Assembly (NCBI GenBank): GCA_022779345.1
Contig: JALFTG010000027.1
Span: 10,275 to 74,274, forward strand
DNA: 64,000 nt
DNA from: Oscillospiraceae bacterium
Lineage (GTDB): Bacteria; Bacillota; Clostridia; Oscillospirales; Oscillospiraceae
Direction of reading: 5' to 3'
The position numbers were made by a program, and so were the translations under genes. Under the pieces are notes generated by a model. That model made no database searches. It was not told the DNA's origin and saw only the letters and a program-made list of their open reading frames with translations. Shown here one piece after another: positions 9,536-55,485 of this stretch; the stretch's first letter is position 1, and every line of letters begins with the position of its first letter.

Positions 9536-9537
9536 AT

Positions 9538-10650
9538 TCAGACCTCCAGTACTTTGTCATAAACCGCTTCCACATTCCGGGCGAAGATCTCGCCGGTGAA
9601 GCGCTGGGAATAGATTTCTCCGGCCCGCCGGCCCATGCGGTGCAGGGTGTCCGGGTCGTCCATGAGCTGTGCGATTTTTGCCGCCAGGTCGGCGCTGTCC
9701 TGATTGGTGAACAGCAGCCCGTCGTCCCCGTCGTCGATGACCCAGGGATTCCCGGCGCAGTTGCTGACCACGGCGGGCAGGCCCATGCTCAGCCCCTCCA
9801 GCACCGACAGGCTGGAGGTCTCCGTCACATAGGAGGCGTTCAGCTGCAGGTCCAGCAGGGACAGAAAGCGGTCGATCTCCGTGACCAGACCGAAAAACCG
9901 CACCCAGGGGTCCAGCCCCATCTCATGGCACAGGGCCTTCACTTCTTCCTCATATCCGCCGGTGCCGCCCACCAGCAGATACACCTCCCGGCCCTGATCC
10001 CGGAGGAGCCGCAGGGCTTCCAGAATGTACCGGTGGCCCTTGTATTCCTCGATCCGGGCCAGAATGCCGGTGACGAAGGCGTTGTCCGGGATGCCGTAAG
10101 CTTTCCGCAGGGCGGCGCATTCCGACGCGTCCAGGCGGGGGACCGGCTCCACGCCGTTCATCATGGTGTCGATCATCTCCGGGTCGATGCCCCCCTCCAG
10201 GAGATTCACCCGGGAGGCTTCGCTGACGGCGATGATCCGGTCGGCGAACAGCTCGTTCACGGTTTTGTACACGAACCGGCCCAATCCTTTCTGCATCCGG
10301 GGGGACAGGGGAAAGGCGGAATGCCGGGTGTAGACGATTTTTGCCCCGGTGCCCCGGGCGGCGATCCGGCCGGACATGGCCCCGTGGGTGTGGACAATGG
10401 CGGGCTTTTCCGCCCGGATGATCTTCCGCAGCGCCCGGATGCCGGTCAGGGACAGGGACTGTTCTCCCAGCCCGTCCGCCTCGATGACGGGGACGCCCAG
10501 CGCCTGCACCTGGGGGGCCAGCAGGCTGTCATGGGGCAGGACCACCTTCACCTCAAACCGGGAGCGGTCGTAGTATTTCAGAAAATTCAGCAGGCACCGC
10601 CCGGCGCCGCCGATGTTGGTGTCGCTGATGACATTCAGGACTTTTATCAT
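9538..10650 (-). CDS. family 4 glycosyltransferase
   Basis: MIKVLNVISDTNIGGAGR..., an EEYKGH region and ETSSLSVLEGLSMGLPAV (E-x7-E). ATGA overlap with the upstream gene. Confidence 0.85.
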   Translation of the reverse strand: MIKVLNVISDTNIGGAGRCLLNFLKYYDRSRFEVKVVLPHDSLLAPQVQALGVPVIEADGLGEQSLSLTGIRALRKIIRAEKPAIVHTHGAMSGRIAARGTGAKIVYTRHSAFPLSPRMQKGLGRFVYKTVNELFADRIIAVSEASRVNLLEGGIDPEMIDTMMNGVEPVPRLDASECAALRKAYGIPDNAFVTGILARIEEYKGHRYILEALRLLRDQGREVYLLVGGTGGYEEEVKALCHEMGLDPWVRFFGLVTEIDRFLSLLDLQLNASYVTETSSLSVLEGLSMGLPAVVSNCAGNPWVIDDGDDGLLFTNQDSADLAAKIAQLMDDPDTLHRMGRRAGEIYSQRFTGEIFARNVEAVYDKVLEV

Positions 10651-12086: not shown

Positions 12087-12171
12087 CCAAACCCTCCTTT
12101 GCAATTTGAAAAATACATGGAAAAACCCGCCATGCCGGTATATAATGTCCCCAAAAGGGGGATGTGTCGAA

Positions 12172-12540
12172 ATGTGGAAACTGCTTTGTGTGGGCGCCGG
12201 AGGCTTTCTCGGCTCCGTGTGCCGGTATCTGCTGGGGCTGCTGCCCGTGGGGACCTCCGGGGGCTTCCCGGTGAAAACCTGGGGCATCAACATCCTGGGC
12301 GCCTTCGTCATCGGCATGGTGACCACCATCGCCGCCCGGAACCAGGCCCTGGACTCCGGCTGGACCCTGTTTCTGAAAGCGGGGGTGTGCGGCGGGTTCA
12401 CCACCTTCTCCACCTTTGCCTTTGAGACGGCGGACCTCCTCCAGCGGGGCAGCACCGGCACGGCGCTGGTCTATGCCCTGTCCAGCATGGTGCTGGGCGT
12501 CCTGGCAGTATTTGCCGCCTCCTGGCTGTTCCGGGCATAA
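12172..12540 (+). CDS. crcB: fluoride ion channel CrcB
   Basis: MWKLLCVGAGGFLGSVCRY...GVCGGFTTFSTF. Confidence 0.85.
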   Translation: MWKLLCVGAGGFLGSVCRYLLGLLPVGTSGGFPVKTWGINILGAFVIGMVTTIAARNQALDSGWTLFLKAGVCGGFTTFSTFAFETADLLQRGSTGTALVYALSSMVLGVLAVFAASWLFRA

Positions 12541-12671
12541 GACTCGCTGACATCTTATCATATCAGAAAATGCCCCGTTTGTAAATCCGGGAAAGGGGCG
12601 ATCCCTTTTAACTTAATGTGTTGGTTTTAGGCTTTTGGAAAATCCTTCGTCGAAATGACGGAAAAGGGCAT

Positions 12672-12712
12672 AAGAAAAGGCACCCTAAGATTTTGAAATC
12701 TTGTGGTGCCTT
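12672..12712 (-). terminator. terminator of the low-GC lipoprotein gene
   Basis: AAGGCACC..hairpin..GGTGCCTT followed by a T-rich run on the minus strand. Confidence 0.6.
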
Positions 12713-12717
12713 CGTCA

Positions 12718-13491
12718 TTATTTTACACGAACTCCATTCAGTGAAATGCCTTCAACTGTATACTCTGTGCCGTTGGCAATAAACCAAACGGAGAAAAGAA
12801 TATCATCTTTTACCCCAAACCCATTTTTAGCAGTTACCTTACCTAAAATTTGATATTTCTCATCACTACGACCTATTTTCCAATCAAGTGCGCCAAAATC
12901 AGCAGTATCAGGATAATTTAAATACTGTTTCACAGCACTTGTTGCCAATGACTGCAACTCTCCATACACTTCAAGTGTAACTTCTTTTTCGGGGACATGA
13001 ACATCTGAATAATTTTTTAGAAATCCTCCATTTTCACTGTCATACAAATCTTCACCACTGAACCCAGCGTAAAACAGCACACCATCTTCAGTTGTAAAGA
13101 AGAACCGTCTATCCTTATCAGTATATCCATTTGGATAGCAGACTACGGAATTAAGTCCGCTCTCTGCTTCACCAGTCATACTCTCAATCTCAATCTCGGT
13201 TATGCCTACAGTATTCAAAATTTCCTGTATAGCACTTGCGTGATCAATACTGTATCCTGTAGCTATCAATGTATCAGTAACTGTGCTGTCAATTTGCTCC
13301 AAGTCACTCAGGGGTTCCGTTGGGACAATAAATGCTCCATTATCTTTGTTAGAGTTGGTTTCTACATCATTTGATGATGTAGAAGCACTGTTTCCTGCAT
13401 TATCTTTATTCTTTTGACCATCTGATGCGTCGCAAGCACATAAGGACAAAAGCATTGCTAATGCTACACCGTATACAGCCAATTTTTTCAT
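12718..13491 (-). CDS. lipoprotein, function unknown (low-GC gene)
   Basis: MKKLAVYGVALAMLLSLCAC lipobox. The gene is visibly AT-rich compared with its flanks. Confidence 0.7.
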   Translation of the reverse strand: MKKLAVYGVALAMLLSLCACDASDGQKNKDNAGNSASTSSNDVETNSNKDNGAFIVPTEPLSDLEQIDSTVTDTLIATGYSIDHASAIQEILNTVGITEIEIESMTGEAESGLNSVVCYPNGYTDKDRRFFFTTEDGVLFYAGFSGEDLYDSENGGFLKNYSDVHVPEKEVTLEVYGELQSLATSAVKQYLNYPDTADFGALDWKIGRSDEKYQILGKVTAKNGFGVKDDILFSVWFIANGTEYTVEGISLNGVRVK

Positions 13492-13601
13492 CCAAACTCC
13501 CTCCGGTTCTTTGATGATATTTTAAGTATAGCATCATCAAAAGAATTTGTCGAGAAGTATAAGCAAGGCACAGAAGGCGGTTGACCTCTGTGCCTTGTAT
13601 T

Positions 13602-13850
13602 TTATTTGCGTTCCCTGATTACGGACTCAATGATTGCGATTTCATCTGGTGTCAGTCCATATTTCTGGTATAACTCTTGGTCGGTAAACTTTGCTTACAA
13701 TCCACTTCATTGGTATATCAACTTCTCCCATGTATCCCGAAAAGAAGTGCACCCCGTCATTTTTTACAGGTATATAAGCTGGCTGATATGGATTTTTGGA
13801 CAGGTTTTGGTAAAATCGCCGGAGTTTAGACCACCAACATTTTAAGTTAA
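13602..13850 (-). pseudogene. frameshifted 3' remnant of a larger gene, restriction-modification-like tail
   Basis: One frame ends ..DQELYQKYGLTPDEIAIIESVIRERK*, the LY.(K/L)YGLT.(D/E)EI..IE tail common in R-M methylases and endonucleases. The upstream part (..IPVKNDGVHFFSGYMGEVDIPMKWIVSKVY) is in another frame and is cut off at the A-family repeat. Confidence 0.35.
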
Positions 13851-13932
13851 TTGGGACAAGGGGCGCATCAGACTTCTCAACAAAACCCGGCGCAGGGGGC
13901 GTATGCCCCCCCTGCGCCGGGTCAACTTGACG

Positions 13933-14100
13933 AAAAAGCTTCGCAGAATTTGCGCCGAATGGCGCAAACAAATCAAATCTGTTTTTTTGTGCGGCTTTGC
14001 TGTGCAAAAAAACACTTCTCGGCCGGCGCAGTGTGCCCGAAGGGTGCATGGAGCGGCCGCAAAGTCTCTGTCGAAAAGCCCCAAAGGGGTTTTTCGACAG
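13933..14100. repeat. A-family repeat, copy 2 (+), bracketed by related hairpins at 13885-13922 and 14105-14140
   Basis: About 95% identical to copy 6 across the shared blocks. Terminal hairpin CTGTCGAAAAGCCCCAAAGGGGTTTTTCGACAG. Confidence 0.85.
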
Positions 14101-37187: not shown

Positions 37188-38037
37188 TCTTGTCCACTTC
37201 TTCCTTGATGAGTCTGCCCTCCCGGAGGAGCTCTTCCAGCCGGGGGCGGTCGCCGCCGGCGAGGGCGGCGCGGTATTTGGTGAGGTTATCCATAAAGGTA
37301 TCCAGCTCACTGAGCAGGTAATCCTGATTGTCCAGGAACAGTTCCGCCCACATGGTCTCATTCAGCCAGGCCACGCGGGTCATGTCCTTGTAGCTGCCGG
37401 CGGAGTAGCCCTTGTGTTCCCGGGCGGTGGGACTTTTCACGAAGGCGTTGGACACCACATGGGCCATCTGGGAGGAGAAGGCGATCATGCGGTCGTGATT
37501 CTCCGCGGTGGTGATGGTCACCCGTCCGAACCGGCAGGGGGTCAGCAGGGACTTGATGTGATCAAAAAAGTCGATGTCGTCAAATTCCGGCGGGACGATG
37601 ATCATGGAGGCGTCCTTATACATGGTGGGACGGCTGTATTTGTAGCCGGAGAACTGGGTGCCCGCCATGGGATGCCCGCCCACAAACCGGAAGCCGTGTT
37701 CCTTTGCCAGGGCGAAGCAGGCCTCGCATACCTGCCGCTTGATGCCGCAGGTGTCCATGACGATGGGGCGCTGCCCGATGTACGGGGCCATCTCTTTGAG
37801 ATAGTCAATGGTGGCCTGGGGATACAGGGCGATGATCACCAGATCGCAGGTGCCGATGTTGTCCTTTGACAGTTCCCCGGACACCACGCCGTTCATCTCT
37901 GCCAGTTCCAGGGTGTCCCGGCTGCGGTTCCAGGCCAGGACCGTGTGGCCCGCGGCGGCGTACGCCTTGGCAAAGCTGCCGCCCATCAGGCCCAGACCGA
38001 CCACGCCGACGGTCAGCTGCTGAAAGTCACTCTCCAT
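37168..38037 (-). CDS. tyrA: prephenate dehydrogenase
   Basis: MESDFQQLTVGVVGLGLMGGSFA... Rossmann fold, GGHPMAG. Confidence 0.85.
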   Translation of the reverse strand: MESDFQQLTVGVVGLGLMGGSFAKAYAAAGHTVLAWNRSRDTLELAEMNGVVSGELSKDNIGTCDLVIIALYPQATIDYLKEMAPYIGQRPIVMDTCGIKRQVCEACFALAKEHGFRFVGGHPMAGTQFSGYKYSRPTMYKDASMIIVPPEFDDIDFFDHIKSLLTPCRFGRVTITTAENHDRMIAFSSQMAHVVSNAFVKSPTAREHKGYSAGSYKDMTRVAWLNETMWAELFLDNQDYLLSELDTFMDNLTKYRAALAGGDRPRLEELLREGRLIKEEVDKIDYRSR

Positions 38038-38042
38038 GTCGC

Positions 38043-39050
38043 TCACCCTCTCATGGCCTCCAGGATGCGGCCCACGCTGGCCGTGACCTGATCGAACTGG
38101 TCGGGGGTGAGGGACTGGGCGCCGTCGCACTTGGCATGGGGAGGATCGTTGTGGACCTCGATCATCAGGCCGTCAGCACCCACGGCGGCAGCGCCCATGG
38201 CCATGGTGGGCACCATGCGGCTCAGGCCGGTGGCGTGGCTGGGATCCACGATGATGGGCAGGTGACTCAGCTCATGGACAGCGGGGACGGCGGACAGGTC
38301 CAGGGTGTTGCGGGTGTAAGTCTCGTAGGTGCGGATGCCGCGCTCGCACAGGATGACCTCATGGTTGCCGCCGGCCATGATGTACTCGGCGCTCATGAGC
38401 CACTCCTGGATGGTGTTGGCCAGGCCGCGCTTGAGCAGAATGGGCTTGCGGCAGTGGCCGATCTCTTTCAGAAGCTCGAAGTTCTGCATATTCCGGGCAC
38501 CGATCTGGATGATGTCGATATCATCGAACAGGTCCAGGTGCTTGATGTCCATCAGTTCGGTGACGATGGGCAGGCCGGTCTCTTTCTTGGCCTCCAGCAG
38601 CAGGCGGATGCCTTCCTCGCCCATGCCCTGGAAGGAGTAGGGGGAGGTGCGGGGCTTGAACGCGCCGCCGCGCAGGATCTGGGCACCGGCGGCCTTCACC
38701 CGCTGGGCGCAGTAGATGATCTGTTCTTCGCTCTCCACGGAGCAGGGGCCGGCCATGTAGACGAAGTTGCCGCCGCCGATCTTCGTGCCGTTTTTCAGTG
38801 TAATGACGGTGTCATCGGGGTGGAACTTCCGGTTGGCCTGCTTGAAGGGCTCGGAAACCCGTTTTACAGATTCCACAATGTCCAGGGCCTCGATCAGCTC
38901 GGTGTCGATCTTGCTCACATCGCCCACCAGACCCATGATGGTGATATCGGTGCCTCTGGAGATGTCGGGTTCCACGCCCTTGGCCTTGAACCAGTTGCTC
39001 AGGTTCTCAATCTGTTTTTCGGATGCGCCTTGTTTCAGAACTACGATCAT
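38043..39050 (-). CDS. aroF: 3-deoxy-7-phosphoheptulonate synthase (type I-beta with N-terminal ferredoxin-like extension)
   Basis: MIVVLKQGASEKQI.. then GPCSVES...GAFKPRTSPYSFQG. GGGAGG RBS. Confidence 0.9.
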   Translation of the reverse strand: MIVVLKQGASEKQIENLSNWFKAKGVEPDISRGTDITIMGLVGDVSKIDTELIEALDIVESVKRVSEPFKQANRKFHPDDTVITLKNGTKIGGGNFVYMAGPCSVESEEQIIYCAQRVKAAGAQILRGGAFKPRTSPYSFQGMGEEGIRLLLEAKKETGLPIVTELMDIKHLDLFDDIDIIQIGARNMQNFELLKEIGHCRKPILLKRGLANTIQEWLMSAEYIMAGGNHEVILCERGIRTYETYTRNTLDLSAVPAVHELSHLPIIVDPSHATGLSRMVPTMAMGAAAVGADGLMIEVHNDPPHAKCDGAQSLTPDQFDQVTASVGRILEAMRG

Positions 39051-39065
39051 GTCTGTTTCCTCCCT

Positions 39066-39106
39066 GAAAAAAATCAAGCCGTACAGCGATCATGCTGTAC
39101 GGCTTC
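39066..39106 (-). terminator. attenuator terminator in the aro operon leader
   Basis: Minus strand: AAGCCGTACAGC-ATGATC-GCTGTACGGCTT (12-bp stem) followed by GATTTTTTT, ending 13 nt before the aroF RBS. Confidence 0.7.
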
Positions 39107-45493: not shown

Positions 45494-46402
45494 TTATACC
45501 CCCGCCGTTTCCGGGGTGGCGAAGGGACTGCGGGACAGGACGAACTGTTTGAAATCCTCCACCACCGGGGACTGGGTCAGGGAGGGGTCCGTGACCATAT
45601 AGAACCGCCGGTCTGGCACCGGCCGGGCGATCTGGAGGATCTTCACATTCAGCCGCAGGAGCATCTCCATATAGGGCACGATGGCGATGCCGAACCCGTG
45701 GGACACCATGCCGGCCACCACCTGGTCCTCCTGAATCTCATAGGCGGTGGGGGGCGTTTCGTCCCCGATCTGCTTGAACAGATCGTCCACCACATACCGC
45801 AGGCCGGAGCCGGGGGCGAACTTCACATAGGGTTCGGAGAGGGTGTCCGCCAGGTCAATGCTGTGGTATTTCGCCAGGGGGTGGTCCGACGGCACGATCA
45901 GCACCAGGTCCTGCCGGGTGACGGGCTGACACAGGAACCGGTAACTCTCCGGAGCCTCGGAACTGAACACAATGTCCAATTCCCGGCGCTTCAATTTGTC
46001 CAAAAGTGCATAAGTCACATCCGTGTGAAAGGTGAAATCGATCTGTTTGTCCGGCCGGGCGGCGATGAAATCTGCGGCCAGCCGGGGCACATAGTCCACG
46101 CCCAGCGTCCGCAGCAGACCCAGCCGGATCAGGCCGTTGCCCTGGGCGCACCGGTGGAGATAGTCCACGCTCTCGTCCAGAATTTCCAGGGACTGTTCCA
46201 CGCTTTCCAGAAACCGTTCGCCGAATACAGTCAGCTCCACATTCCGGTTTCCCTTCTCAAACAGGGGGACGCCCAGCTCCCGCTCCAGCTGGGAAATGGC
46301 ATGGCTCAGGCTGGGCTGGGTGATATACAGCTGTTCCGCCGCCCGGGTGAAGTGCCGGGTATGGGCCAGCTGGACGAAATATCGCAGATGGGACAAATTC
46401 AC
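45494..46402 (-). CDS. LysR-family transcriptional regulator
   Basis: ..LSHLRYFVQLAHTRHFTRAAEQLYITQPSLSHAISQLE... GTG at 46402, 6 nt after GAAGGAGGG (alternative ATG at 46423). Divergent from the hydroaromatic locus. Confidence 0.85.
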   Translation of the reverse strand: MNLSHLRYFVQLAHTRHFTRAAEQLYITQPSLSHAISQLERELGVPLFEKGNRNVELTVFGERFLESVEQSLEILDESVDYLHRCAQGNGLIRLGLLRTLGVDYVPRLAADFIAARPDKQIDFTFHTDVTYALLDKLKRRELDIVFSSEAPESYRFLCQPVTRQDLVLIVPSDHPLAKYHSIDLADTLSEPYVKFAPGSGLRYVVDDLFKQIGDETPPTAYEIQEDQVVAGMVSHGFGIAIVPYMEMLLRLNVKILQIARPVPDRRFYMVTDPSLTQSPVVEDFKQFVLSRSPFATPETAGV

Positions 46403-46644
46403 AAAATTCCCTCCTTCAGACATGGTTCTCTATGTCATTTTTATCACAATGCTTGGCTTGATTATAGCACAGAAAATAGAGGAAATCTATAAAATTATAA
46501 AATTTATTGATTTGTTAATTGTCAAACGAAGTGGTACAGTAGGGCCAGACAAAGCAAAAGGCCGCCGGCGGGTCCGGAACACCGCCGCGGACCTTCCAGG
46601 CATCCCGGGTGCGTGGAACCAAAACTGTGAGAGGAGCGCAAGCT

Positions 46645-47511
46645 ATGAACATCACCGGAAAAACAAGACTGCTGGGATTGATCGGCACCCCCGTTGACCA
46701 TTCCAAGTCTCCGGCCATGTACAACTACTGTTTTGAAAAATACGGACTGGACTGTGTGTATCTGGCCTTCGATGTGGACCTGGAGCACACCGCCGACGCC
46801 ATCCAGGCCATCCGCACCTTCAACCTCCGGGGCGCCAATGTGACCATGCCGCTGAAGAGCGCGGTGGTCCCGTACCTGGACGAACTGAGTCCCGCCGCCA
46901 GGGCCATCGGTGTGGTGAACACCATTGTCAATGACGACGGCAGGCTCACCGGCTACTGCACCGACGGTCTGGGCTACACCGGCGACCTCCGCCGCCACGG
47001 CATCGGGGTGGCAGGGAAGAAGATCACCCTGCTGGGCGCGGGCAGCGCCGGCCGGGCCCTGGCCATCCAGGCCGCCCTGGACGGCGCCCGGGAACTGGCC
47101 GTGTTCAACCGGAAGGACAGCTTCTGGAATGTGGCGGAAGAAAAGCTGGAGGTCATCCGGCAGGAGGCACCGGAATGTGTGATCCGTCTGTATGACCTGG
47201 AGGACGCCGACACCCTCCGCCGGGAAATCGCGGACAGCGATATCCTCACCAACGCCACCAGCGTGGGCATGATCCCCATGGACGACGCCAGCCCGGTGCC
47301 GGATGTGACCATGCTCCGGCCGGACCTGATCGTCACAGACATTATCTACAACCCCGTGGAGACCAAGCTGTTGCAGGACGCCAAAGCCGTGGGCTGCCGC
47401 ACCTTCAACGCGCTGGGTCTGCTGCTGGGCCAGGGAGCCGCCGCCTTTGAACTGTACTCCGGCGGACTGGAGATGCCCCTGGACGAAGTGTACGAACAAT
47501 TCTACAAATAA
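46645..47511 (+). CDS. quinate/shikimate dehydrogenase, YdiB-like, paralogue 1
   Basis: NTIVNDDGRLTGYCTDG, FNRKDSFW, ILTNATSVGM. These match the E. coli YdiB signatures NTIVNDDGYLRGYNTDG, FNRRDEFF and ILTNGTKVGM as I recall them. Confidence 0.85.
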   Translation: MNITGKTRLLGLIGTPVDHSKSPAMYNYCFEKYGLDCVYLAFDVDLEHTADAIQAIRTFNLRGANVTMPLKSAVVPYLDELSPAARAIGVVNTIVNDDGRLTGYCTDGLGYTGDLRRHGIGVAGKKITLLGAGSAGRALAIQAALDGARELAVFNRKDSFWNVAEEKLEVIRQEAPECVIRLYDLEDADTLRREIADSDILTNATSVGMIPMDDASPVPDVTMLRPDLIVTDIIYNPVETKLLQDAKAVGCRTFNALGLLLGQGAAAFELYSGGLEMPLDEVYEQFYK

Positions 47512-47527
47512 GAAAGGGAGAGAGACC

Positions 47528-48760
47528 ATGACAAGTACCGAAACCAGCATGAAACGCTACTATCCCACTGCCCTGGCCCTGTATATCACCTACTTCGTTC
47601 TGGGCGTGGCCGCCTCCATCATGGGGCATTACAAACAGGAATTCGCCGCCCTGTGGGGCGCGCAGCTCCTGTCCGACGGAACTTATGATGTGTCCACGGT
47701 TGTGGCCGTCATCGCCGCCATCGGCCTGGGCCGTCTGATCGCCTTCCCCTTCGCCGGTCCTCTGTCTGACAGAGTGGGCCGCCGGGTCCCGGCACTGATC
47801 GGCTGTGTCATGTACGCGGTGTTCCTGCTGGGCATCACCTACACCCGCAATCTGTATCTGGGCTACGCCATGGCCATCATCAGCGGCATGGCAAACTCTT
47901 TCCTGGACACCAGCATCACCCCCTCCTGCATGGAGATTTTCAAGGAAAAGGGCACCATCGCCAACATCTTCACCAAACTGTCCATCTCCATCGCCCAGTT
48001 CCTGCTGCCCTTCGCCATCGGATTTGTGGCCGCCCGGAGCCTGCCTTTCAATCTGGTGTTCCTGGCCACCGCCGTCATCATCATCGTGGACGGCATCGCC
48101 CTGTGCTTCCTGCCCTTTCCGCCCTTTGAGAAGCCGGAGAAGGCCGAAAACGGGGAGAAGGAGAAGATGCACTTCACCCCCTCCGCTGTCATCCTGGTGA
48201 TTCTGGGCTTCACCACCTCCACCACCTTCATGCTGTGGATGAACTGCAACCAGGAGCTGGGCCTGCTCTACGGCCTGTCCGACCCCAGCAAAATCCAGTC
48301 CTTCTACGCCGTGGGCATCGTGCTGGCCCTGTTTGTGAACGCCGCCCTGCTGAACCGGGGCCTGAAACCCAGCAAAATTCTGATCATTTATCCCACCATC
48401 GCCCTGGTCACGCTGGCCGTGGTCTACTTCGTCCAGACCCCCTGGATCTGCCTGGCAGGCGGGGCACTGATGGGCTTCTTCGCCGCCGGCGGCGTGCTCC
48501 AGCTGGTCACCGCTGTGGCCAATGAGATGTTCCCGAAGAACCGGGGCGTCATCACCTCCATCGTGATGATCTCCTCCAGCATCGCCAACTTCACCATTCT
48601 GAATGTGGCCAGCCTGCTGACCCGCATGGGCGGCACCAACGGCCCCCGGCTGGTGCTGCTGCTGAACATCGCTGTCACCCTGGTCGGCATCATCCTGGCC
48701 GTCATCCTGAACACCCGCATCGAAAAGGACATGGAAAGTCATTCAAACCTGTCGGTTTGA
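47528..48760 (+). CDS. MFS transporter (12 TM)
   Basis: ..FAGPLSDRVGRR.. loop motif. The last 7 codons and the stop lie inside A-family repeat copy 4. Confidence 0.8.
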   Translation: MTSTETSMKRYYPTALALYITYFVLGVAASIMGHYKQEFAALWGAQLLSDGTYDVSTVVAVIAAIGLGRLIAFPFAGPLSDRVGRRVPALIGCVMYAVFLLGITYTRNLYLGYAMAIISGMANSFLDTSITPSCMEIFKEKGTIANIFTKLSISIAQFLLPFAIGFVAARSLPFNLVFLATAVIIIVDGIALCFLPFPPFEKPEKAENGEKEKMHFTPSAVILVILGFTTSTTFMLWMNCNQELGLLYGLSDPSKIQSFYAVGIVLALFVNAALLNRGLKPSKILIIYPTIALVTLAVVYFVQTPWICLAGGALMGFFAAGGVLQLVTAVANEMFPKNRGVITSIVMISSSIANFTILNVASLLTRMGGTNGPRLVLLLNIAVTLVGIILAVILNTRIEKDMESHSNLSV

Positions 48761-48899
48761 ATGAGAATTTGCGGACGCTCCATGCACTCGCTGCGCTCGC
48801 ACACTCCGCCGTCCGATCAGTGTTTTTTGGCACAGCAAAGCCGCACCAAAAAACAGATTGAAATTTCTTTGTGCCTATCGGCACAAATTCTGCGAAGCA
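48739..48899. repeat. A-family repeat, copy 4 (- orientation)
   Basis: The reverse complement carries GCTTCGCAGAATTTG, TTTTGGTGCGGCTTTGCTGTGCCAAAA and a terminal hairpin TCATTCAAACC..GGTTTGAATGA. Confidence 0.8.
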
Positions 48900-48947
48900 A
48901 TTTCAAAAACCGGGAAAACCATACAATTAAAATTGGAGGACACAAAC

Positions 48948-49796
48948 ATGAGTAAGAAACATCCTGTTACCGTCAGTTCCTGGACCCTGGGCGATCAGTG
49001 CACCTTTGAAGAGCGGGTCCGCGCAGCAAAAGAGGCCGGTTTTGAGGGCATCGGCCTGCGGGCTGAGACCTATGTGGACGCCCTGAACGAGGGCCTGTTC
49101 GACGAAGACATCCTGGCCATCCTGGATAAATACGACATGAAGGTCACGGAAGTGGAATACATCGTCCAGTGGGCGGAGGACCACCGGTCCTATGAGCAGA
49201 AGTACAAGGAGCAGATGTGCTTCCATATGTGCGAACTGTTCGGCGTGGACCACATCAACTGCGGCCTCATGGAGAACTACTCCGTAGAGCACACTGCCCA
49301 GAAGCTGAAAGAGCTGTGCCACCGGGCGGGCAAGTACACCATCGGCGTGGAGCCCATGCCCTACAGCGGTCTGCCCGATGTGAAGAAGGCCTGGGCCGTG
49401 GTGGAGGCCTCCGGCTGCGAAAACGCCAAGCTGATCCTGGACTCTTGGCACTACATCCGGGCCGGTCAGCCCTGCGACCTGTCCGTGTTGGAGGGCATCC
49501 CCGCCGACAAGATCGTGTCCATCCAGATCAACGATGTGCAGGCACACCCCTATGCCAGGAGCATTCTTCGGGACGAGTCCATGCATGACCGGATGCTCCC
49601 CGGCACCGGCTACGGCGACACCACCGGCTTCGTGAAGATGATTCGGGACAAGGGCATCTCCCCCGCCGTGGTGGGCGTGGAAGTCATCAGCGACGAGATC
49701 CTCTCCGCCGGTGTCCCCGCCGCCGCACAGGCGAACTTTAAAGCCACCCAGGCTGTACTCTCTAAATCCTGGCCCGAAGTCATGGCCGGCTGCTAA
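48948..49796 (+). CDS. xylose-isomerase-like TIM-barrel protein (sugar phosphate isomerase/epimerase family); candidate 3-dehydroshikimate dehydratase
   Basis: 282 aa with ..AGFEGIGLR.., ..GVEPMP.., ..LDSWH.., ..GVEVIS... Fold, size and context resemble AsbF/QsuB-type enzymes. The specific activity is inferred only. Confidence 0.7.
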   Translation: MSKKHPVTVSSWTLGDQCTFEERVRAAKEAGFEGIGLRAETYVDALNEGLFDEDILAILDKYDMKVTEVEYIVQWAEDHRSYEQKYKEQMCFHMCELFGVDHINCGLMENYSVEHTAQKLKELCHRAGKYTIGVEPMPYSGLPDVKKAWAVVEASGCENAKLILDSWHYIRAGQPCDLSVLEGIPADKIVSIQINDVQAHPYARSILRDESMHDRMLPGTGYGDTTGFVKMIRDKGISPAVVGVEVISDEILSAGVPAAAQANFKATQAVLSKSWPEVMAGC

Positions 49797-49797
49797 T

Positions 49798-49964
49798 GTC
49801 GTTTGAAGCCCCGCAGGGGCTTCAAACGAGAAAATTGCGGCCGCTGCGCGCACCCTGCGGGCACACTCCGCTGGCCGAGAAGTGTTTTTTGGCACAGCGA
49901 AGCCGCACCAAAAAACGGATGAAAATTCATTCGGTGCTGACGCGCCGAACTCTGCGAGGCTTTT
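49798..49964. repeat. A-family repeat, copy 5 (- orientation)
   Basis: Terminal hairpin GTCGTTTGAAGCCCCGCAGGGGCTTCAAACGA(g), then GGCCGAGAAGTGTTTTTTGGCACAGCGAAGCCGCACCAAAAAA. Confidence 0.8.
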
Positions 49965-49991
49965 TAGCCAAAGTATAAGGAGGAAACAACA

Positions 49992-50867
49992 ATGGAAAAC
50001 AGAATCAACGGACATACCCGCCTCTTCTGCCTGATCGGCTCCCCCGTGGGCCACTCCGGCTCCCCCGCCATGTATAACTACAGCTTCGACCGTCTGGGTC
50101 TGGACAACGCCTACCTGGCCTTCGACATTCCTCTGGAAAAGACCGGCGAGGCCGTGGAAGCCCTGAAACTGCTCCATGTGGGCGGATTCAACATCACCAT
50201 GCCCTGCAAGACCGAGGTGGCCAAATACCTGGACGATCTGTCCCCCGCCGCCCGTCTGATCGGCGCCTGCAACACCGTCACCGTCAGCGAGGACGGCAAG
50301 CTCACCGGCCACAACACCGACGGCGTCGGCTTTGTCCGCAACCTGAAAGAGCACGGTGTGGATGTGGCCGGCAAGAAGATCGTGGTTCTGGGCGCCGGCG
50401 GCGCCGCCACCGCTGTGACCATCCAGTGCGCTCTGAGCGGCGCCAGCGAGGTCCATATCTTCAACCGCAAGGGCTACAACTTCTATGAAAACGGCGAGCA
50501 CACCGTGGAGAAGATCCGCGCCAATGTCCCCGGCTGCCAGGCATCCATCGACAATCTGCTGGATTCCGCCGCCCTGGCCGAGGCCGTGGGCAGCTGCGAC
50601 ATTCTGGTCAACGCCACCAAGGTGGGCATGGCCCCCCTGGACGGCGAGACCCTCATCGATTCCAGCCTGTTCCGCCCCGATCTGGTGGTGGCGGACACCG
50701 TGTATAACCCCCGGGAGACCCGCATGATCCGGGAAGCCCAGGCGGCCGGCTGCAAAGCGGCCATCGGCGGCATCGGCATGCTGCTCCAGCAGGGCGTGGA
50801 GGCCTTCCACCTGTTCACCGGCAAGGATATGCCTGCCCAGGAGGTTATGGAGAAGTTTTTCTCCTGA
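49992..50867 (+). CDS. quinate/shikimate dehydrogenase, YdiB-like, paralogue 2
   Basis: ..GSPAMYNYSF.., NTVTVSEDGKLTGHNTDG, FNRKGYNFY, ILVNATKVGM, FTGKDMP. Confidence 0.85.
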   Translation: MENRINGHTRLFCLIGSPVGHSGSPAMYNYSFDRLGLDNAYLAFDIPLEKTGEAVEALKLLHVGGFNITMPCKTEVAKYLDDLSPAARLIGACNTVTVSEDGKLTGHNTDGVGFVRNLKEHGVDVAGKKIVVLGAGGAATAVTIQCALSGASEVHIFNRKGYNFYENGEHTVEKIRANVPGCQASIDNLLDSAALAEAVGSCDILVNATKVGMAPLDGETLIDSSLFRPDLVVADTVYNPRETRMIREAQAAGCKAAIGGIGMLLQQGVEAFHLFTGKDMPAQEVMEKFFS

Positions 50868-50908
50868 GCCGCAGACCCGCAGCGGGGTGGGACGACCTGC
50901 CGTGCCGA

Positions 50909-51037
50909 CCCTCTCCGCCTCGCTACGCTCGGCACCTCCCCCAGAGGGGGAGGCTCCGGATGTGCGGCTGCGCCGCCCAGTTTGGCTCCCCCTTTGCGGG
51001 AGCTGGCGCCAGGCGTAGCCTGGTGACTGAGAGGGCC
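50909..51037. repeat. B-family composite repeat, copy 2 (module order inverted)
   Basis: CCCTCTCCGCCTCGCT..GGCACCTCCCCCAGAGGGGGAGGC, then ..GGGAGCTGGCGCCAGGCGTAGCCTGGTGACTGAGAGGGCC. Confidence 0.7.
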
Positions 51038-51057
51038 GCCCACCAACGCACCCCGTT

Positions 51058-51173
51058 CCTGTCATTGCGAGGAGCGAAGCGCCGTGGCAATCCGCATCCC
51101 CTTGGGTGCGTGACGCATCGCAGAAAAAGAGAACGGATTCCCACGTCGGCCTGCGGCCTCCTCGGAATGACAG
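51058..51173. repeat. MITE-like unit with ~37-nt terminal inverted repeats
   Basis: CCTGTCATTGCGAGGAGCGAAGCGCCGTGGCAATCCG (51058-51094) against the reverse complement of CGGATTCCCACGTCGGCCTGCGGCCTCCTCGGAATGACAG (51134-51173). Confidence 0.55.
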
Positions 51174-51242
51174 AATCCAGGTTGCGAAGCAAGTATCCCG
51201 GAAAAAACAAATCAGAAATCGAAAAGAAAGGGGTCACTGACC

Positions 51243-53174
51243 ATGAAATATCCCACCATGTTCTCTCCCATCCAGATCGGCACCGTCACTGTGCCCAACC
51301 GCTTTGTGGTGCCCCCCATGGGCAACAACTTCGCCAATACCGACGGCACCATGTCCGACCGCTCCGCCGCTTATTATGAGGCCCGTGCCAAGGGCGGCTT
51401 CGGCCTGATCACCATCGAGTCAACCGTGGTCTACGCGGAAGCCAAGGGCGGCCCCAGAAAGCCCTGTCTGTTCACCGATGACACCGTGGACAGCTTCAAA
51501 AAGGTGGTGGACCGCTGCCACGCCTACGGCGCCAAGGTGAATATCCAGCTCCAGCACGCCGGTCCCGAGGGCAACAGCAAGCTCACCGGCTATCCCCTGA
51601 AGGCCGCCAGCGCCATGGCCTCCCACTGCGGCGGTGAGATCCCCGTGGCCATGCCCACGGAGGAGGTCTACAAGCTCATCGAGTGCTACGGCGACGCCGC
51701 CGCCCGTGCCCAGCGGGCCGGGGTGGACATGGTGGAAGTCCACTGCGCCCACGGCTATCTGGTGAGCACCTTCATCTCCGCCCGCACCAACAAGCGCACC
51801 GACGAGTTCGGCGGCTGCTTTGAAAACCGGATGCGCCTGCCCCGGCTGATCATCGAGAACATCCGCCGCAAGACCGGTGGCAGCCTGCCCATCCTGTGCC
51901 GCATCAACGCCCGGGACGAGGGCGAGGGTGGACTGACCGTCCAGGACGCGGCCGTCATTGCGGCCTATCTGGAGCAGGAGTGCGGCGTGGACGCTTTGAA
52001 TGTGTCCCGCTCCATCCACCTGCATGACGAGTTCATGTGGGCCCCCAACAACACCCACGCCGGCTTCAATGCCGACCTGGTGACCGAGATCAAGAAGGCC
52101 GTGTCCATCCCCGTGATCACCGTGGGCCGCTACACCGAGCCCCAGTATGCGGAGCTGCTGGTGAAGCAGGGCCGGGCGGATCTGGTGGCCTTCGGCCGTC
52201 AGTCCATCGCCGACCCCGAGCTGCCCAACAAGGCCCGCACCGGCCATCTGGAGACCCTGACCCCCTGCATCGCCTGTCTGCTGGGCTGCGTGCCCAATAT
52301 GCTGGCCGGCCGGCCCATCACCTGCGCCATGAACCCCACTGTGGGCCGTGAAGCGGAGATCGTCCCCGCCCAGGTGAAGAAAAAGGTGCTGGTTATCGGC
52401 GGCGGCCCCGGCGGTATGTACGCCGCCTGGATGTGCGCCAGACGGGGCCACAGCGTGACCCTGCTGGAAAAGGGCAGCGAGCTGGGCGGACACTTCCTGG
52501 TGGCCTCCTATCCTCCCGCCAAGGGCGAGATTGCTCCCGCCATCCGCAGTCTGATCGTCCGCTGCCGGGAGGCCGGTGTGGACATCCGGCTGAACACCGA
52601 AGCCACTGCGGAACTGGTGCAGGAGATCGCTCCCGACGCCGCCATCGTGGCCACCGGTTCCACCCCGCTGATCCTGCCCATCCCCGGCCTGGCTGAGTGC
52701 GGCTATGTGAACGCCGAGGATATGCTCACCGGCAAGCAGACTGTGGGCAAGCGCGTCCTGATTGTGGGCGGCGGCATGGTGGGCGCCGAGGCTGCCGAGC
52801 ATCTGGCCGAGCGCGGCCACGAATGTGATATCGTGGAAATGAAGCATGTGGTGGGCGAGGACATCATGCCCGAACCCCGGAAGTACATCATGGCCAGCCT
52901 GGAGCACCACAAGGTGGGCCAGTTCACCGACGCAAAAGTCAGCCGTTTCTACACCGACGGCGTGGCTTACACCTCCACCGTGGACGGCAGCGAAGGCGAG
53001 CTGCGGGGCTACGACAGCATTGTTCTTGCCATGGGTTACCGCTCCAACAACCCCCTGGAAGAGCAGCTGAAGCCCCTGGTTCCCCAGGTCATCGTCATCG
53101 GCGAGGCCCGTCAGGCCCCCGGCAACTCCATGATCGCCACCGGGGACGCCCTGAACGCCGCCCTGGCCATCTGA
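51243..53174 (+). CDS. 2-enoate reductase family flavoprotein, paralogue 2
   Basis: MKYPTMFSPIQIGTVTVPNRFVVPPMGN (OYE-like), CIACLLGC...C cluster, VIGGGPGGMYAAWMCARRGHSV. Confidence 0.85.
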   Translation: MKYPTMFSPIQIGTVTVPNRFVVPPMGNNFANTDGTMSDRSAAYYEARAKGGFGLITIESTVVYAEAKGGPRKPCLFTDDTVDSFKKVVDRCHAYGAKVNIQLQHAGPEGNSKLTGYPLKAASAMASHCGGEIPVAMPTEEVYKLIECYGDAAARAQRAGVDMVEVHCAHGYLVSTFISARTNKRTDEFGGCFENRMRLPRLIIENIRRKTGGSLPILCRINARDEGEGGLTVQDAAVIAAYLEQECGVDALNVSRSIHLHDEFMWAPNNTHAGFNADLVTEIKKAVSIPVITVGRYTEPQYAELLVKQGRADLVAFGRQSIADPELPNKARTGHLETLTPCIACLLGCVPNMLAGRPITCAMNPTVGREAEIVPAQVKKKVLVIGGGPGGMYAAWMCARRGHSVTLLEKGSELGGHFLVASYPPAKGEIAPAIRSLIVRCREAGVDIRLNTEATAELVQEIAPDAAIVATGSTPLILPIPGLAECGYVNAEDMLTGKQTVGKRVLIVGGGMVGAEAAEHLAERGHECDIVEMKHVVGEDIMPEPRKYIMASLEHHKVGQFTDAKVSRFYTDGVAYTSTVDGSEGELRGYDSIVLAMGYRSNNPLEEQLKPLVPQVIVIGEARQAPGNSMIATGDALNAALAI

Positions 53175-53284
53175 AGTTCTCTCCTCCTCAACTTTACCAA
53201 TCACTTACCTTTCCATTTCCTTTCAAACCTACCTTTCAAACGCCAGTTCTCTCCATCCATTACCTCATTATATCTCTTTCAAAC
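53175..53284 (+). repeat. G-depleted C/U-rich 3' tract with internal direct repeats
   Basis: No G across 53177-53241 or 53247-53284. CTTTCAAAC occurs 3 times (about 53220, 53233, 53276) and AGTTCTCTCC twice (53175, 53245). Confidence 0.7.
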
Positions 53285-53329
53285 GGGTCTCCCGGAGGAT
53301 TCTCTCCCCTCCGGGAGATTCCCGTTTTT
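53281..53329 (+). terminator. intrinsic terminator after enoate reductase 2
   Basis: AACGGGTCTCCCGGAGG-loop-CCTCCGGGAGATTCCCGTT followed by TTT. Confidence 0.7.
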
Positions 53330-53388
53330 CTGACGCGTTGCATTTTTTGACAAAGATTGTCGGAAAAGATTGTACTGTTTGACCGTTG

Positions 53389-53417
53389 TTGACAAGGAGT
53401 TTCCCGGGATGTATTAT
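53389..53417 (+). promoter_or_regulatory. sigma-70-type promoter for enoate reductase 3
   Basis: TTGACA (53389-53394), 17 nt, TATTAT (53412-53417). Flanked by GACAA-AGA-TTGTC, AAAGATTGT twice, and downstream ATATCAG-AAAC-CTGATAT. Confidence 0.5.
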
Positions 53418-53490
53418 ATAAAGTAACTAATGTCAAGAAAATATCAGAAACCTGATATGTGGGGAGCTCCCCCGGGAAAGGAGAAGAACC

Positions 53491-55485
53491 ATGAAATACC
53501 AGCATATTTTCTCACCGTTGAAAATCCGCGACTGCACGCTGGAAAACCGCATCGTCATGCCCTCCATGGGCACCCTGATGGCCAGCGACCACGCCTTTGT
53601 GACAGATCAGGTGATCGATTATTATGTGGAACGCGCCAAAGGCGGCGTGGGCCTGATCATCACGGAATGTGCCTCCATCTGGCCGGAATCCACCCAGGGG
53701 TATGCCCTGGGCATCTCTGACGACAAGTTTATCCCCGGCCTGAAGCGTCTGGTGGACGCCGTCCACGCCGAGGGCTGCAAAATTGTGCTGCAGATGTACG
53801 AGGCGGCGGAGTGCTGCATGAACGGCCATGCGGACACCAGCAAGCTGCGGATTATGTCCCCCATCGACAAGTACGGCGGAATGTGGAAGGCCATCCCCAC
53901 CGAGGAGCTGCCCCTGATTGCCGAGGCCTTCGGCAAGGCCACCGCCCGGGCGGATGCCGCCGGGTTTGACGGCGTGGAGATCCACTGCGGCCACACCTAT
54001 CTGATCCATCAGTTCCTCTCCCCCCACTACAACAACCGTACCGACGGTTACGGCACCACCAAGGAAAACTGCATGAAGTTCCCGCTGATGTGCCTGGACG
54101 AGGCCCGGAAGAATCTGTCTCCCGGCAAGCCCCTGTTCATCCGTATCAGCGCCCATGACGACTATACATACGACAAGGACGGCAATTTCGACGGCCTGAC
54201 CCTGGACGATATGGTGGAATTCTGCTGCCGGGCCCGGGATCTGGGTGTGGATGTGGTGGATGTCAGCCGTGGCAACTATGACAAGGGCGGCATCTACGAA
54301 GTGCCCGCCATCGGCATCCCCTTCGGCTTCAACAAGGACAACGCCCTGTATATCAAGGAAAAGACCGGCCTGACCGTCATGACCGTGGGCCGTCTGGGCC
54401 GTCCGGAGCTGGCGGAGGCCGTGCTGAAGGAAGGCGTGGATCTGGTTGGCTGGGGCCATGCCCATCTGGCCGATCCCCAGATCGTGACCAAGACCCGGGA
54501 AGGCCGGGAGGATGAGATCTGCTACTGCATCGGTTGCGATCAGGGCTGCGCCGAGGCGTACTATCACGCCGACTGGCCCCATATCTCCTGCCTGCGGAAT
54601 CCCACTGTGGGCCGGGAGAAGGAAATGGCCCTCGTCCCCGCACAGACGCCCAGGACCGTGCTGATCGCCGGCGCCGGCGTGGGCGGTCTGGAAGCGGCCC
54701 GCACCCTGGCCCAGCGGGGCCATAAGGTCATTTTGTGTGAGAAGAACCCCTCTATGGGCGGACAGTTCCGTCTGGCGGGCGTGGCCCCCAATAAGGAAGA
54801 TTTCGCCGCGGCGGTGGACTGGATGGAACGCATGGCGGCCAGAGAGCCCAATGTGGACATCCGGGTGAACACCCCCGTGACGCCGGAATTGCTGGAGGAG
54901 CTGAAGCCCGATCATCTGATCATTGCCACCGGCGGCCACACCCGGCCTCTGACCGTCCCCGGCGGGGAGCTGGCGGTGACCTGCACGGACATTCTGGCCG
55001 GACGGAAGCATCCCTTCGGCAAGTGCGTGGTCGTGGGCGGCGGCATCACCGGTGTGGAGATTGCCGAGTATATCAACGCCCGGGGCCTGCCTGTCTCCGT
55101 GGTGGAGATGGCGCCCCAGCTGGGCCGGGGCCTGAGCCATGGCCGGGCGGAGCTGCTGAATGTGTATCTGGAGGAGCACCCGGAGGTGCAGGTCTACACC
55201 AGCTCCACTGTGGAGAAGCTGGAGCCGGGCAAGGTCTTTATCCATGTGTATCAGACCAGAACCAACCGCCGCACCAAGGAAGTCACCGTGGTCCGGGACG
55301 AACATCTGGTCCTGCCGGCGGACACCATCGTGGCCTCTGTGGGCACCGTGTCCAACGATTTCAGCGACCTGACCGCCGCTGCGGAGCGTCTGGGCATCCC
55401 CTATGACATCATCGGCGACGCCAAAGAGCCGAGAGTGGCCCTGGACGCCATCCGGGAAGCCGCAGAACTGGCAAGAAAGATTTAA
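53491..55485 (+). CDS. 2-enoate reductase family flavoprotein, paralogue 3
   Basis: MKYQHIFSPLKIRDCTLENRIVMPSMGT, CIGCDQGC...C, IAGAGVGGLEAARTLAQRGHKV. Most similar to paralogue 1. Confidence 0.85.
   Translation: MKYQHIFSPLKIRDCTLENRIVMPSMGTLMASDHAFVTDQVIDYYVERAKGGVGLIITECASIWPESTQGYALGISDDKFIPGLKRLVDAVHAEGCKIVLQMYEAAECCMNGHADTSKLRIMSPIDKYGGMWKAIPTEELPLIAEAFGKATARADAAGFDGVEIHCGHTYLIHQFLSPHYNNRTDGYGTTKENCMKFPLMCLDEARKNLSPGKPLFIRISAHDDYTYDKDGNFDGLTLDDMVEFCCRARDLGVDVVDVSRGNYDKGGIYEVPAIGIPFGFNKDNALYIKEKTGLTVMTVGRLGRPELAEAVLKEGVDLVGWGHAHLADPQIVTKTREGREDEICYCIGCDQGCAEAYYHADWPHISCLRNPTVGREKEMALVPAQTPRTVLIAGAGVGGLEAARTLAQRGHKVILCEKNPSMGGQFRLAGVAPNKEDFAAAVDWMERMAAREPNVDIRVNTPVTPELLEELKPDHLIIATGGHTRPLTVPGGELAVTCTDILAGRKHPFGKCVVVGGGITGVEIAEYINARGLPVSVVEMAPQLGRGLSHGRAELLNVYLEEHPEVQVYTSSTVEKLEPGKVFIHVYQTRTNRRTKEVTVVRDEHLVLPADTIVASVGTVSNDFSDLTAAAERLGIPYDIIGDAKEPRVALDAIREAAELARKI

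Follow-up and report, generated by a model that had tools for sequence, protein, structure and literature searches.

What does a strictly anaerobic gut bacterium do with a LysR-controlled set of quinate/shikimate genes that is surplus to its aromatic biosynthesis and that includes a large flavoenzyme belonging to the old yellow enzymes (OYE)? This question is raised by positions 45494-53174 of the window, by which we mean the whole stretch of 64,000 nt analysed here (contig JALFTG010000027.1 of an Oscillospiraceae bacterium). Judged from its sequence, this locus is a qui2-type operon. The name refers to the qui2 operon of Listeria monocytogenes (lmo2233-2238), the closest known system, whose core proteins are orthologous one by one at 48-60% identity. 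According to a preprint on Listeria (bioRxiv 10.1101/2025.04.08.647683, citing Prezioso et al. 2018 and Xue et al. 2020), qui2 consists of the divergent lmo2233 (quiR2) and of lmo2234 (quiC2), lmo2235, lmo2236 (sdhD) and lmo2237-2238; Xue et al. 2020 is also cited for the Listeria pathway in PMC9324987. With this one-to-one correspondence to Listeria qui2, a related set of genes is already on record, although its reductase is still unassigned. The original prediction, which knew of no assigned gene set for the chemistry and drew its parallel to Corynebacterium qsuRABCD, had to be corrected on both points. We propose that the locus serves the use of hydroaromatic acids via 3-dehydroshikimate, with the reductase R1 as the reducing step of a fermentative, NADH-consuming electron sink, and we give this proposal an even chance of being right.

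Domains were assigned with Pfam and NCBIfam profiles, using the curated NCBIfam cut-offs. The gene of the QuiR-type LysR regulator (45494-46402, minus strand; HTH_1 and LysR_substrate) is transcribed divergently and is separated by a promoter/operator region (46403-46644) from the plus-strand genes, which encode the YdiB-like, NAD-type quinate/shikimate dehydrogenase SDH1 (46645-47511; Shikimate_dh_N and SDH_C), a major facilitator superfamily (MFS) transporter (47528-48760; MFS_1), a TIM-barrel protein of 282 amino acids (48948-49796; xylose-isomerase-like, PF01261), a second YdiB-like dehydrogenase, SDH2 (49992-50867), and R1, an OYE/[4Fe-4S]/FAD ene-reductase of 643 amino acids (51243-53174; Oxidored_FMN and Pyr_redox_2). 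They are followed on the same strand by the gene of R2, a BaiCD-like OYE/Fe-S/FAD reductase of 664 amino acids (53491-55485). All seven open reading frames (ORFs) had been proposed at these coordinates and with these domains, which was borne out together with the divergence of the LysR gene, and the start codons chosen at that time fit the N-termini of the homologues. The aro operon (31061-39077, minus strand), which contains AroQ, an AroE-AroK fusion, PheA, AroC, AroA, AroB, TyrA and DAHP synthase, is encoded separately, also in line with the original prediction. As had been claimed, apart from AroQ in the aro operon there are no dehydroquinase or ring-cleavage genes (protocatechuate dioxygenase or beta-ketoadipate genes included) in the locus or in the scanned window ORFs, the scan having covered all but 12.5-14.2, 19.5-21.4 and 59.4-61.5 kb. 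A qui1 operon (YdiB, AroD and QuiR) was not seen in the window.

The TIM-barrel protein is the orthologue of Lmo2234. It matched the Lmo2234 structure 2g0w with E = 3e-94 (phmmer against the PDB) and is 54% identical to QuiC2/Lmo2234 over 278 amino acids. Its AlphaFold2 model, with a pLDDT (predicted local distance difference test) of 92, superposes on 2g0w with a template modelling (TM) score of 0.93 and a root-mean-square deviation of 1.4 (Foldseek). The next fold neighbours of the model are QuiC1 (5hmq; TM 0.81, 19% identity), IolI, AsbF and IolE, so that the modelled fold would place it among enzymes which all work on keto-cyclitols. E135, D165, W167, H168 and E245 are invariant across the family. 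Sequence and model thus assign the protein, as a putative dehydratase, to the QuiC2 class. The Listeria member of this class, QuiC2 (Lmo2234), is described in the preprint as a dehydroshikimate dehydratase, which converts dehydroshikimate to protocatechuate (bioRxiv 10.1101/2025.04.08.647683). Two other assignments were rejected. The protein is not a two-domain QsuB/QuiC1 enzyme, because it has a single domain and scored 35 bits against the QuiC model (cut-off 1200), nor is it of the AsbF type, since AsbF (3dx5) was absent from the phmmer matches at E <= 1 and resembles it in fold only (TM 0.72, 13% identity). The protein is therefore a dehydroshikimate-dehydratase relative, though not of the AsbF/QsuB type with whose size it had been compared.

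For both dehydrogenases, PRK12548 was the best NCBIfam model (419 bits for SDH1 and 438 bits for SDH2; cut-off 432), with YdiB-type models coming next (269 bits for SDH1). The best PDB match of SDH1 was the NAD-dependent quinate/shikimate dehydrogenase of Listeria (3tnl, 309 bits), then YdiB, and the ranking was the same for SDH2. Each of the two proteins is 56.5% identical to Lmo2236 (SdhD), of which SDH2 is the positional equivalent. SdhD turns shikimate into dehydroshikimate in Listeria, according to the preprint (bioRxiv 10.1101/2025.04.08.647683). In a neighbour-joining tree, the window dehydrogenases fall in a YdiB-like clade far from AroE, SDH1 in its upstream-type and SDH2 in its downstream-type subclade. 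This separation from the AroE of the window agrees with the earlier claim that the LysR-controlled quinate/shikimate locus is surplus to biosynthesis. SDH1 has the N-R-K-D motif as in YdiB, and SDH2 has N-R-K-G-Y instead, which is found only in this lineage; because the difference is lineage-specific, we rejected it as a sign of distinct cofactors. The MFS transporter, 54% identical to its orthologue Lmo2237 (395 amino acids) and 58% to the MFS protein of Clostridioides difficile, is a presumed importer of hydroaromatic acids.

R1 and Lmo2235 are 60% identical over the full length (639 amino acids), and the C. difficile enzyme shares 62% identity with R1. Lmo2235 itself is an uncharacterised OYE/Pyr_redox_2 protein of 636 amino acids which is annotated as 'NADH oxidase'. 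Near-identical substrate loops (PPMGNNFANTDG; IQLQHAGPEGNS) are found in R1 and in all of its orthologues including Lmo2235, and all orthologues keep the triad H167-C-A-H170-G-Y172 and the Fe-S motif C-x2-C-x3-C-x11-C. The H/H/Y triad is that of classical ene-reductases, which bind a free carbonyl or carboxylate; judged from the sequence, the second Rossmann motif is G-x-G-x-x-G...V-E, the usual NADH signature. R1 stayed below the curated cut-offs for BaiCD (NF041087; 497 versus 825), BilR (460 versus 750) and the mycofactocin OYE_2 reductase (491 versus 793), and in view of these scores and of its different gene context it was not accepted as any of the three. An FadH-like, CoA-dependent enzyme was rejected because the His/His pair is kept and no cluster contains a CoA ligase or transferase. 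Similarly, R1 is not a shikimate reductase of the fumarate-reductase type, since it belongs to the OYE family and its FAD_binding_2 hits span a short dinucleotide-binding stretch only. It forms a tightly conserved clade of its own with Lmo2235. In the literature searched, we found no assigned function for R1/Lmo2235. We suggest that R1 probably acts as a NADH-dependent enone reductase, and that this makes the route an electron sink.

The constancy of this gene set can be judged from related loci. A scan of one genome per species revealed relatives of the dehydratase in 302 genomes; the counts given here use the best 80 of these 302 and, for each gene, only loci long enough to tell. The relatives returned by the scan had 77% identity or more; the operons of Listeria (L089) and C. 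difficile (L090) were reached by a separate protein search, and C. difficile carries the same module with a dehydratase of 56% identity. In the best 80 loci the dehydratase is 77-89% identical, and they belong to Oscillospiraceae (Oscillibacter, Dysosmobacter, Agathobaculum, Avoscillospira), Anaerotignum, Megasphaera (M. elsdenii and M. massiliensis) and Anaerovoracaceae. Such identity across distantly related gut taxa suggests horizontal spread of the module among gut anaerobes. The taxon labels of metagenome-assembled genomes (MAGs) among the 80 loci are partly unreliable, and implausible ones on some contigs (Escherichia coli, Collinsella, Streptococcus and Prevotella bins) are probably due to mis-binning or mislabelling.

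A dehydrogenase gene follows the dehydratase gene in all loci (67/67), and an R1 orthologue, defined by at least 55% identity, lies within 4.5 kb of it in 62 of the 67. Upstream, a LysR gene was found in 61 of 62 loci and an SDH1-type paralogue in 45 of 62. The R1-type reductase, the one uncharacterised enzyme of the module, is the most faithfully co-inherited partner of the dehydratase, a near-obligate linkage. R1 orthologues are missing from five loci, each of the Anaerotignum lactatifermentans type, which contain two other OYE/Fe-S reductases, a further dehydrogenase and an MFS gene directly upstream. Between the MFS and the dehydratase gene, 40 of 62 loci harbour a gene of the shikimate kinase family (e.g. 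L001, 9469-9975; L047, 8174-8977), a genuine PF01202 member, which is fused to chorismate mutase in A. lactatifermentans. The window locus lacks the kinase gene and has a repeat element (48784-48903) in this position. The embedded kinase and chorismate-mutase-kinase genes tie the operons to shikimate; in Megasphaera the cluster adjoins aroE/aroK-like genes. No type II dehydroquinase was found in 88 related loci. As a side observation, 11 of 79 loci have a gene for a 95-amino-acid ABM-fold protein after the dehydratase gene (L005, 10865-11152; L047, 9865-10152). Its sole NCBIfam match, below the cut-off at 47.7 bits, is to an LsrG-type hydroxy-diketone isomerase, which hints that a diketone or enol intermediate may be tautomerised or isomerised.

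R2 gave a different picture. It shares with R1 the FMN-binding TIM barrel with H-x-x-H-x-Y, the four-cysteine [4Fe-4S] motif and the FAD and NAD(P)H domains, and it differs from R1 in the substrate loops. Its identity amounts to 36% with R1 and 34% with Lmo2235, and it is nearer to BaiCD than R1, scoring 686 bits, under the cut-off of 825. The predicted promoter of its own is real as a match to the consensus, TTGACA-17-TATTAT at 53389-53417 (11/12 positions), and a terminator-like hairpin follows R1. Among 58 loci, R2 adjoins the module in one only (L070). Because of this single occurrence and of its own promoter we regard R2 as a separately transcribed neighbour; together with the 36% identity to R1, this led us to reject it as a member of the pathway. 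Hence, the original claim of enoate reductases belonging to the locus stands for R1 and not for R2, and the two are paralogues in the sense of a common architecture only, not close ones. Judged from its BaiCD score, R2 may have a steroid-like compound or another 3-oxo-delta-4 compound as substrate. The R2 counterpart in an independent metagenome assembly (L092, 2348-4341) is split into ORFs of 194 and 470 amino acids by a frameshift or an assembly error.

With respect to regulation, the LysR protein is 48% identical to QuiR2/Lmo2233 (291 amino acids) and 50% to its C. difficile counterpart. Of the solved structures, that of the Listeria QuiR/Lmo0488 effector domain matches it best (5ted, 124 bits), and QuiR is reported to respond to and bind shikimate in Listeria (bioRxiv 10.1101/2025.04.08.647683). 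A candidate LysR-type site, the inverted repeat TTGA-N11-TCAA (T-N11-A type), is located at 46507-46525; it is kept in the nearest relatives, L010 and L014, partly in L011, and not more widely. In Listeria, the operon is also linked to the redox repressor Rex: when rex is mutated, expression of lmo2234-2238 goes up 7-23-fold in stationary phase and 2-5-fold in mid-log phase (RNA-seq; PMC8389512, S1 Text, Tables A and B), and adhE, pfl and fumarate reductase genes are Rex-repressed beside them (PMC8389512). The DNA of all fetched loci, 1.37 Mb in total, was searched for the Rex box TTGTKAAN4TTMACAA, one mismatch being allowed. Nine boxes were found, and six of these nine lie in the intergenic regions of the LysR operons, which make up about 1.6% of the sequence: one in Listeria, 58 nt upstream of quiC2, one in each of three Megasphaera loci (two of them perfect) and two in MAGs of Clostridia. 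Rex repression is an associated feature of the qui2 operon and not a defining one. Neither these recurring Rex boxes nor the linkage of the Lmo2235-type reductase with QuiC2 nor the breadth of the module in gut anaerobes was found in the literature searched.

How could these proteins work together? One or more dehydrogenases, a keto-cyclitol dehydratase and an enone/enoate reductase are what a route of oxidation, elimination and reduction needs, and from this we infer the role of R1. Under control of the QuiR-like regulator, as orthology suggests, the MFS permease would import shikimate and/or quinate. The YdiB-like dehydrogenases would oxidise shikimate to 3-dehydroshikimate, a reaction shown for the Listeria orthologue; they may also convert quinate to 3-dehydroquinate, to be dehydrated by AroQ encoded elsewhere. 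The QuiC2-class enzyme would eliminate water from a keto-cyclitol by beta-elimination, as does Listeria QuiC2 in making protocatechuate from dehydroshikimate. R1 would use NADH to reduce the enone double bond, either of 3-dehydroshikimate or of the dehydration product, and a dehydrogenase would then reduce the ketone. The net products should be dihydroshikimate and possibly 3,4-dihydroxycyclohexanecarboxylate, with consumption of NADH, while protocatechuate would be an alternative, non-reductive outlet. In its most general form, this scheme would make the qui2-type operons as a class a cytoplasmic, NADH-dependent reductive pathway from shikimate or quinate via 3-dehydroshikimate, in which ene-reduction by R1/Lmo2235, QuiC2-type dehydration, a second reduction and ketoreduction lead to both dihydroshikimate and 3,4-dihydroxycyclohexanecarboxylate; this wider scheme is tentative, and we consider it possible rather than probable.

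The electron-sink proposal is in line with several observations. It fits Rex control in several lineages, because the protocatechuate branch alone makes NADH and the reductive branch consumes it, it fits the partnership of R1 and dehydratase that is kept in 62 of 67 loci of strict anaerobes, and it has precedents in lactic acid bacteria (PMC13204703) and in the shikimate reduction of Eggerthella lenta and Sutterella. Other points weigh against it. In the window promoter (46403-46644) the best match to the Rex box has three mismatches and is not convincing, so that support from Rex is indirect for the window. The operon contains no dehydroquinase, and use of quinate would thus depend on the biosynthetic AroQ. 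The kinase genes of the related loci speak for a salvage branch, for which dehydratase and reductase are both dispensable, and Enterococcus casseliflavus (L091, 7865-18852) has a LysR gene and a dehydratase-dehydrogenase-MFS set without an adjacent R1 orthologue. The reduction by R1 is itself the inferred step, and the documented product in Listeria is protocatechuate, which accumulates (bioRxiv 10.1101/2025.04.08.647683). This last point is the basis of the main rival explanation, according to which protocatechuate is the true end product, exported for instance for interactions between microbes, and R1 is an accessory enzyme for NAD+ recycling or for the reduction of quinones or protocatechuate oxidation products. 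It is supported by the QuiC2 activity and the protocatechuate accumulation reported for Listeria, which was grown aerobically, and by the 54% identity and conserved metal ligands of the dehydratase. Quinones are, moreover, commonly reduced by OYE enzymes. However, a 640-amino-acid Fe-S flavoenzyme with highly conserved loops, encoded beside the dehydratase in nearly all loci, is unlikely to be a mere accessory, and the anoxic gut offers no electron acceptor for an 'NADH oxidase'. Production of NADH would also fit poorly with a de-repression by Rex at high NADH, and the Listeria authors themselves term the role of protocatechuate enigmatic. We consider this explanation doubtful.

The remaining alternatives question the fate or the identity of the substrate. 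In a salvage role, imported quinate or shikimate would pass through the dehydrogenases and shikimate kinase to yield chorismate and, from it, aromatic amino acids, which would relieve the aro pathway. The kinase genes in 40 of 62 related loci, their fusion to chorismate mutase in Anaerotignum, the aroE/aroK-like genes beside the Megasphaera cluster and the aro operon 14 kb away in the window would be in agreement with this, but in the window locus a repeat element fills the place of the kinase gene, and the dehydratase, which destroys the precursor, and the ene-reductase are not needed for salvage and yet are the most conserved members. As the purpose of the operon, salvage is improbable; it is probably a side branch. 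It is about as improbable that the same logic of oxidation, elimination and reduction is applied to another carbocyclic polyol or keto-cyclitol, such as an inositol-like compound or plant cyclitol. Non-shikimate substrates do exist in the dehydrogenase family (the 5-ketofructose reductase 7cok was among the PDB matches), the dehydratase has IolI and IolE as close neighbours in fold, and the scores of 419 and 438 bits lie just below or at the cut-off of 432. Nevertheless, the best matches of the dehydrogenases, at 250-310 bits, are quinate/shikimate enzymes, shikimate and dehydroshikimate were the compounds with which the Listeria orthologues were tested, QuiR binds shikimate, and shikimate kinase and chorismate mutase genes are embedded in related clusters. 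Finally, both reductases could belong to the pathway and act on aromatic side chains (cinnamate, or caffeate derived from chlorogenate) or on protocatechuate-derived compounds. Their domain architecture is indeed common with clostridial 2-enoate and cinnamate reductases, and hydrolysis of chlorogenate yields quinate and caffeate (PMC11572103). This is very improbable in view of the separate transcription, divergence from R1 and single occurrence of R2; besides, no cluster contains an esterase, R1 forms its own conserved clade at an equal distance from the models for BaiCD, BilR and the mycofactocin-associated reductase, and Listeria and C. difficile keep R1 with shikimate genes only. Taken together, reductive use of hydroaromatic acids is the most coherent reading of the locus.

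The gene organisation around the operon shows some further peculiarities. A repeat of about 105-120 nt fills long gaps inside the operon, its copies being 77-95% identical to each other. The copy at 48784-48903 belongs to the repeat families D2/I1/I3, a second copy at 49861-49965 is 77% identical to 48799-48903 and 95% complementary to 57636-57695, and a third, inverted copy is found 8 kb downstream at 57592-57710. The 375-nt gap in front of R1 (50868-51242) is densely occupied by GC-rich palindromic motifs. The exact R1 sequence was found only on short contigs, which all end approximately 100 nt upstream of R1, presumably because of the repeats in the gap; exact-sequence look-ups of the dehydratase and of R2 gave no match. 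A third OYE/Fe-S/FAD reductase is encoded beside the aro operon by an ORF of 718 amino acids (28772-30928, plus strand), the 5' end of which contains the Rex-box-like site TTGTCATACATATCACAA with two mismatches (28800-28817). Its true start may be downstream of this site, because the Pfam domain begins at residue 42. In the E. casseliflavus locus, hydantoinase_A-like genes, a short-chain dehydrogenase/reductase gene and a gene for a protein of more than 970 amino acids with OYE, FMN_bind and FAD_binding_2 domains lie downstream of the operon, and a perfect Rex box is located in or near the latter at 18261. The genes thyA-folA (61509-63045, minus strand) lie at a distance of about 6 kb from the operon; in L005-L007 (3657-5018) they are likewise neighbours of the related operon, a remnant of a common chromosomal context, though the other flanks differ. 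At the other end of the window, a set of polysaccharide synthesis genes (Wzy_C, glycosyltransferases and pyruvyl transferase; 6331-12461) precedes a stretch of low G+C content (12001-14000; 0.46 versus about 0.6 elsewhere).

The identification of a qui2-type operon in a gut anaerobe is important for several reasons. Large amounts of shikimate and of quinate, which comes from the chlorogenic acids in coffee, fruit and vegetables, arrive in the colon, and a five-gene module that was partly studied in Listeria is now seen across abundant gut anaerobes. Hippurate derived from the two acids is in wide use as an indicator of microbiome diversity and metabolic health (PMC5651863). The bacteria that turn quinate into hippurate precursors, and their enzymes, are still termed unidentified (PMC12655642), and a 2024 review of gut polyphenol enzymes contains no gut-bacterial enzyme acting on quinic acid (PMC11572103). 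R1 is a concrete, testable candidate for anaerobic hydroaromatic reduction, and cultivable carriers exist. Its linkage to the pathway points to a reduction of plant hydroaromatic acids as an electron sink, in addition to their aromatisation. If this is true, the operon would provide genes for the conversion of quinate and shikimate in the gut towards cyclohexanecarboxylate, from which the host makes hippurate, and also the missing microbial genes for quinate reduction in lactic fermentations. Further, it is tempting to speculate that protocatechuate in Listeria is a side outlet used under aerobic conditions, while under anaerobic ones the pathway serves to regenerate NAD+, which would explain why Listeria makes protocatechuate without being able to use it.

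Compared with known systems, the locus is closest to Listeria qui2 but not identical to it. The gene order here is LysR / SDH1-MFS-dehydratase-SDH2-R1, and in Listeria it is LysR / dehydratase-reductase-dehydrogenase-MFS-MFS. The window locus has an additional dehydrogenase paralogue, its host is a strictly anaerobic gut member of the Oscillospiraceae, and it lacks a convincing counterpart of the Rex box in front of quiC2. The qsuR/qsuABCD cluster of Corynebacterium glutamicum and the qui-pca clusters of Pseudomonas and Acinetobacter follow the same logic of LysR regulator, transporter, dehydrogenase and dehydratase. Unlike them, the window locus encodes a single-domain dehydratase and an ene-reductase, and neither a dehydroquinase in the cluster nor protocatechuate ring-cleavage enzymes; its gene content argues that it is not a member of these aerobic clusters. 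The three-domain architecture of R1 and R2 is common with that of clostridial 2-enoate reductases, BaiCD/BaiH, BilR, FadH and 2-naphthoyl-CoA reductase.

At the level of chemistry, the nearest precedents are found elsewhere. In lactic acid bacteria, quinate is reduced by way of shikimate to dihydroshikimate and serves as a hydrogen acceptor, as mentioned with reference to earlier work in PMC13204703. This quinate reduction by lactobacilli corresponds to what we propose here, with a dehydrogenase, dehydration, reduction of the double bond and regeneration of NAD+. We know of no genes assigned to it. Formation of dihydroxycyclohexanecarboxylate in Lactobacillus plantarum was reportedly described by Whiting and Coggins in the 1970s, and Brewster and colleagues are said to have found that gut microbes reduce shikimate to cyclohexanecarboxylate, from which hippurate is formed in the host. 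In gut anaerobes, Eggerthella lenta and Sutterella wadsworthensis respire shikimate to hydroshikimate (bioRxiv 10.1101/2022.12.26.521950). Their enzymes are flavin reductases of the fumarate reductase type, induced as single genes; shikimate reduction in gut bacteria is thus not in general a chemistry lacking assigned enzymes. R1 belongs to a different family, and since the gene of this cytoplasmic OYE enzyme stands among those of dehydrogenases and of a dehydratase, the keto form, an enone, is presumed to be its substrate, and not shikimate itself. The outcome in E. lenta and Sutterella, where the C=C bond of shikimate serves as electron acceptor in a gut anaerobe, is like that proposed here for the qui2-type operon.

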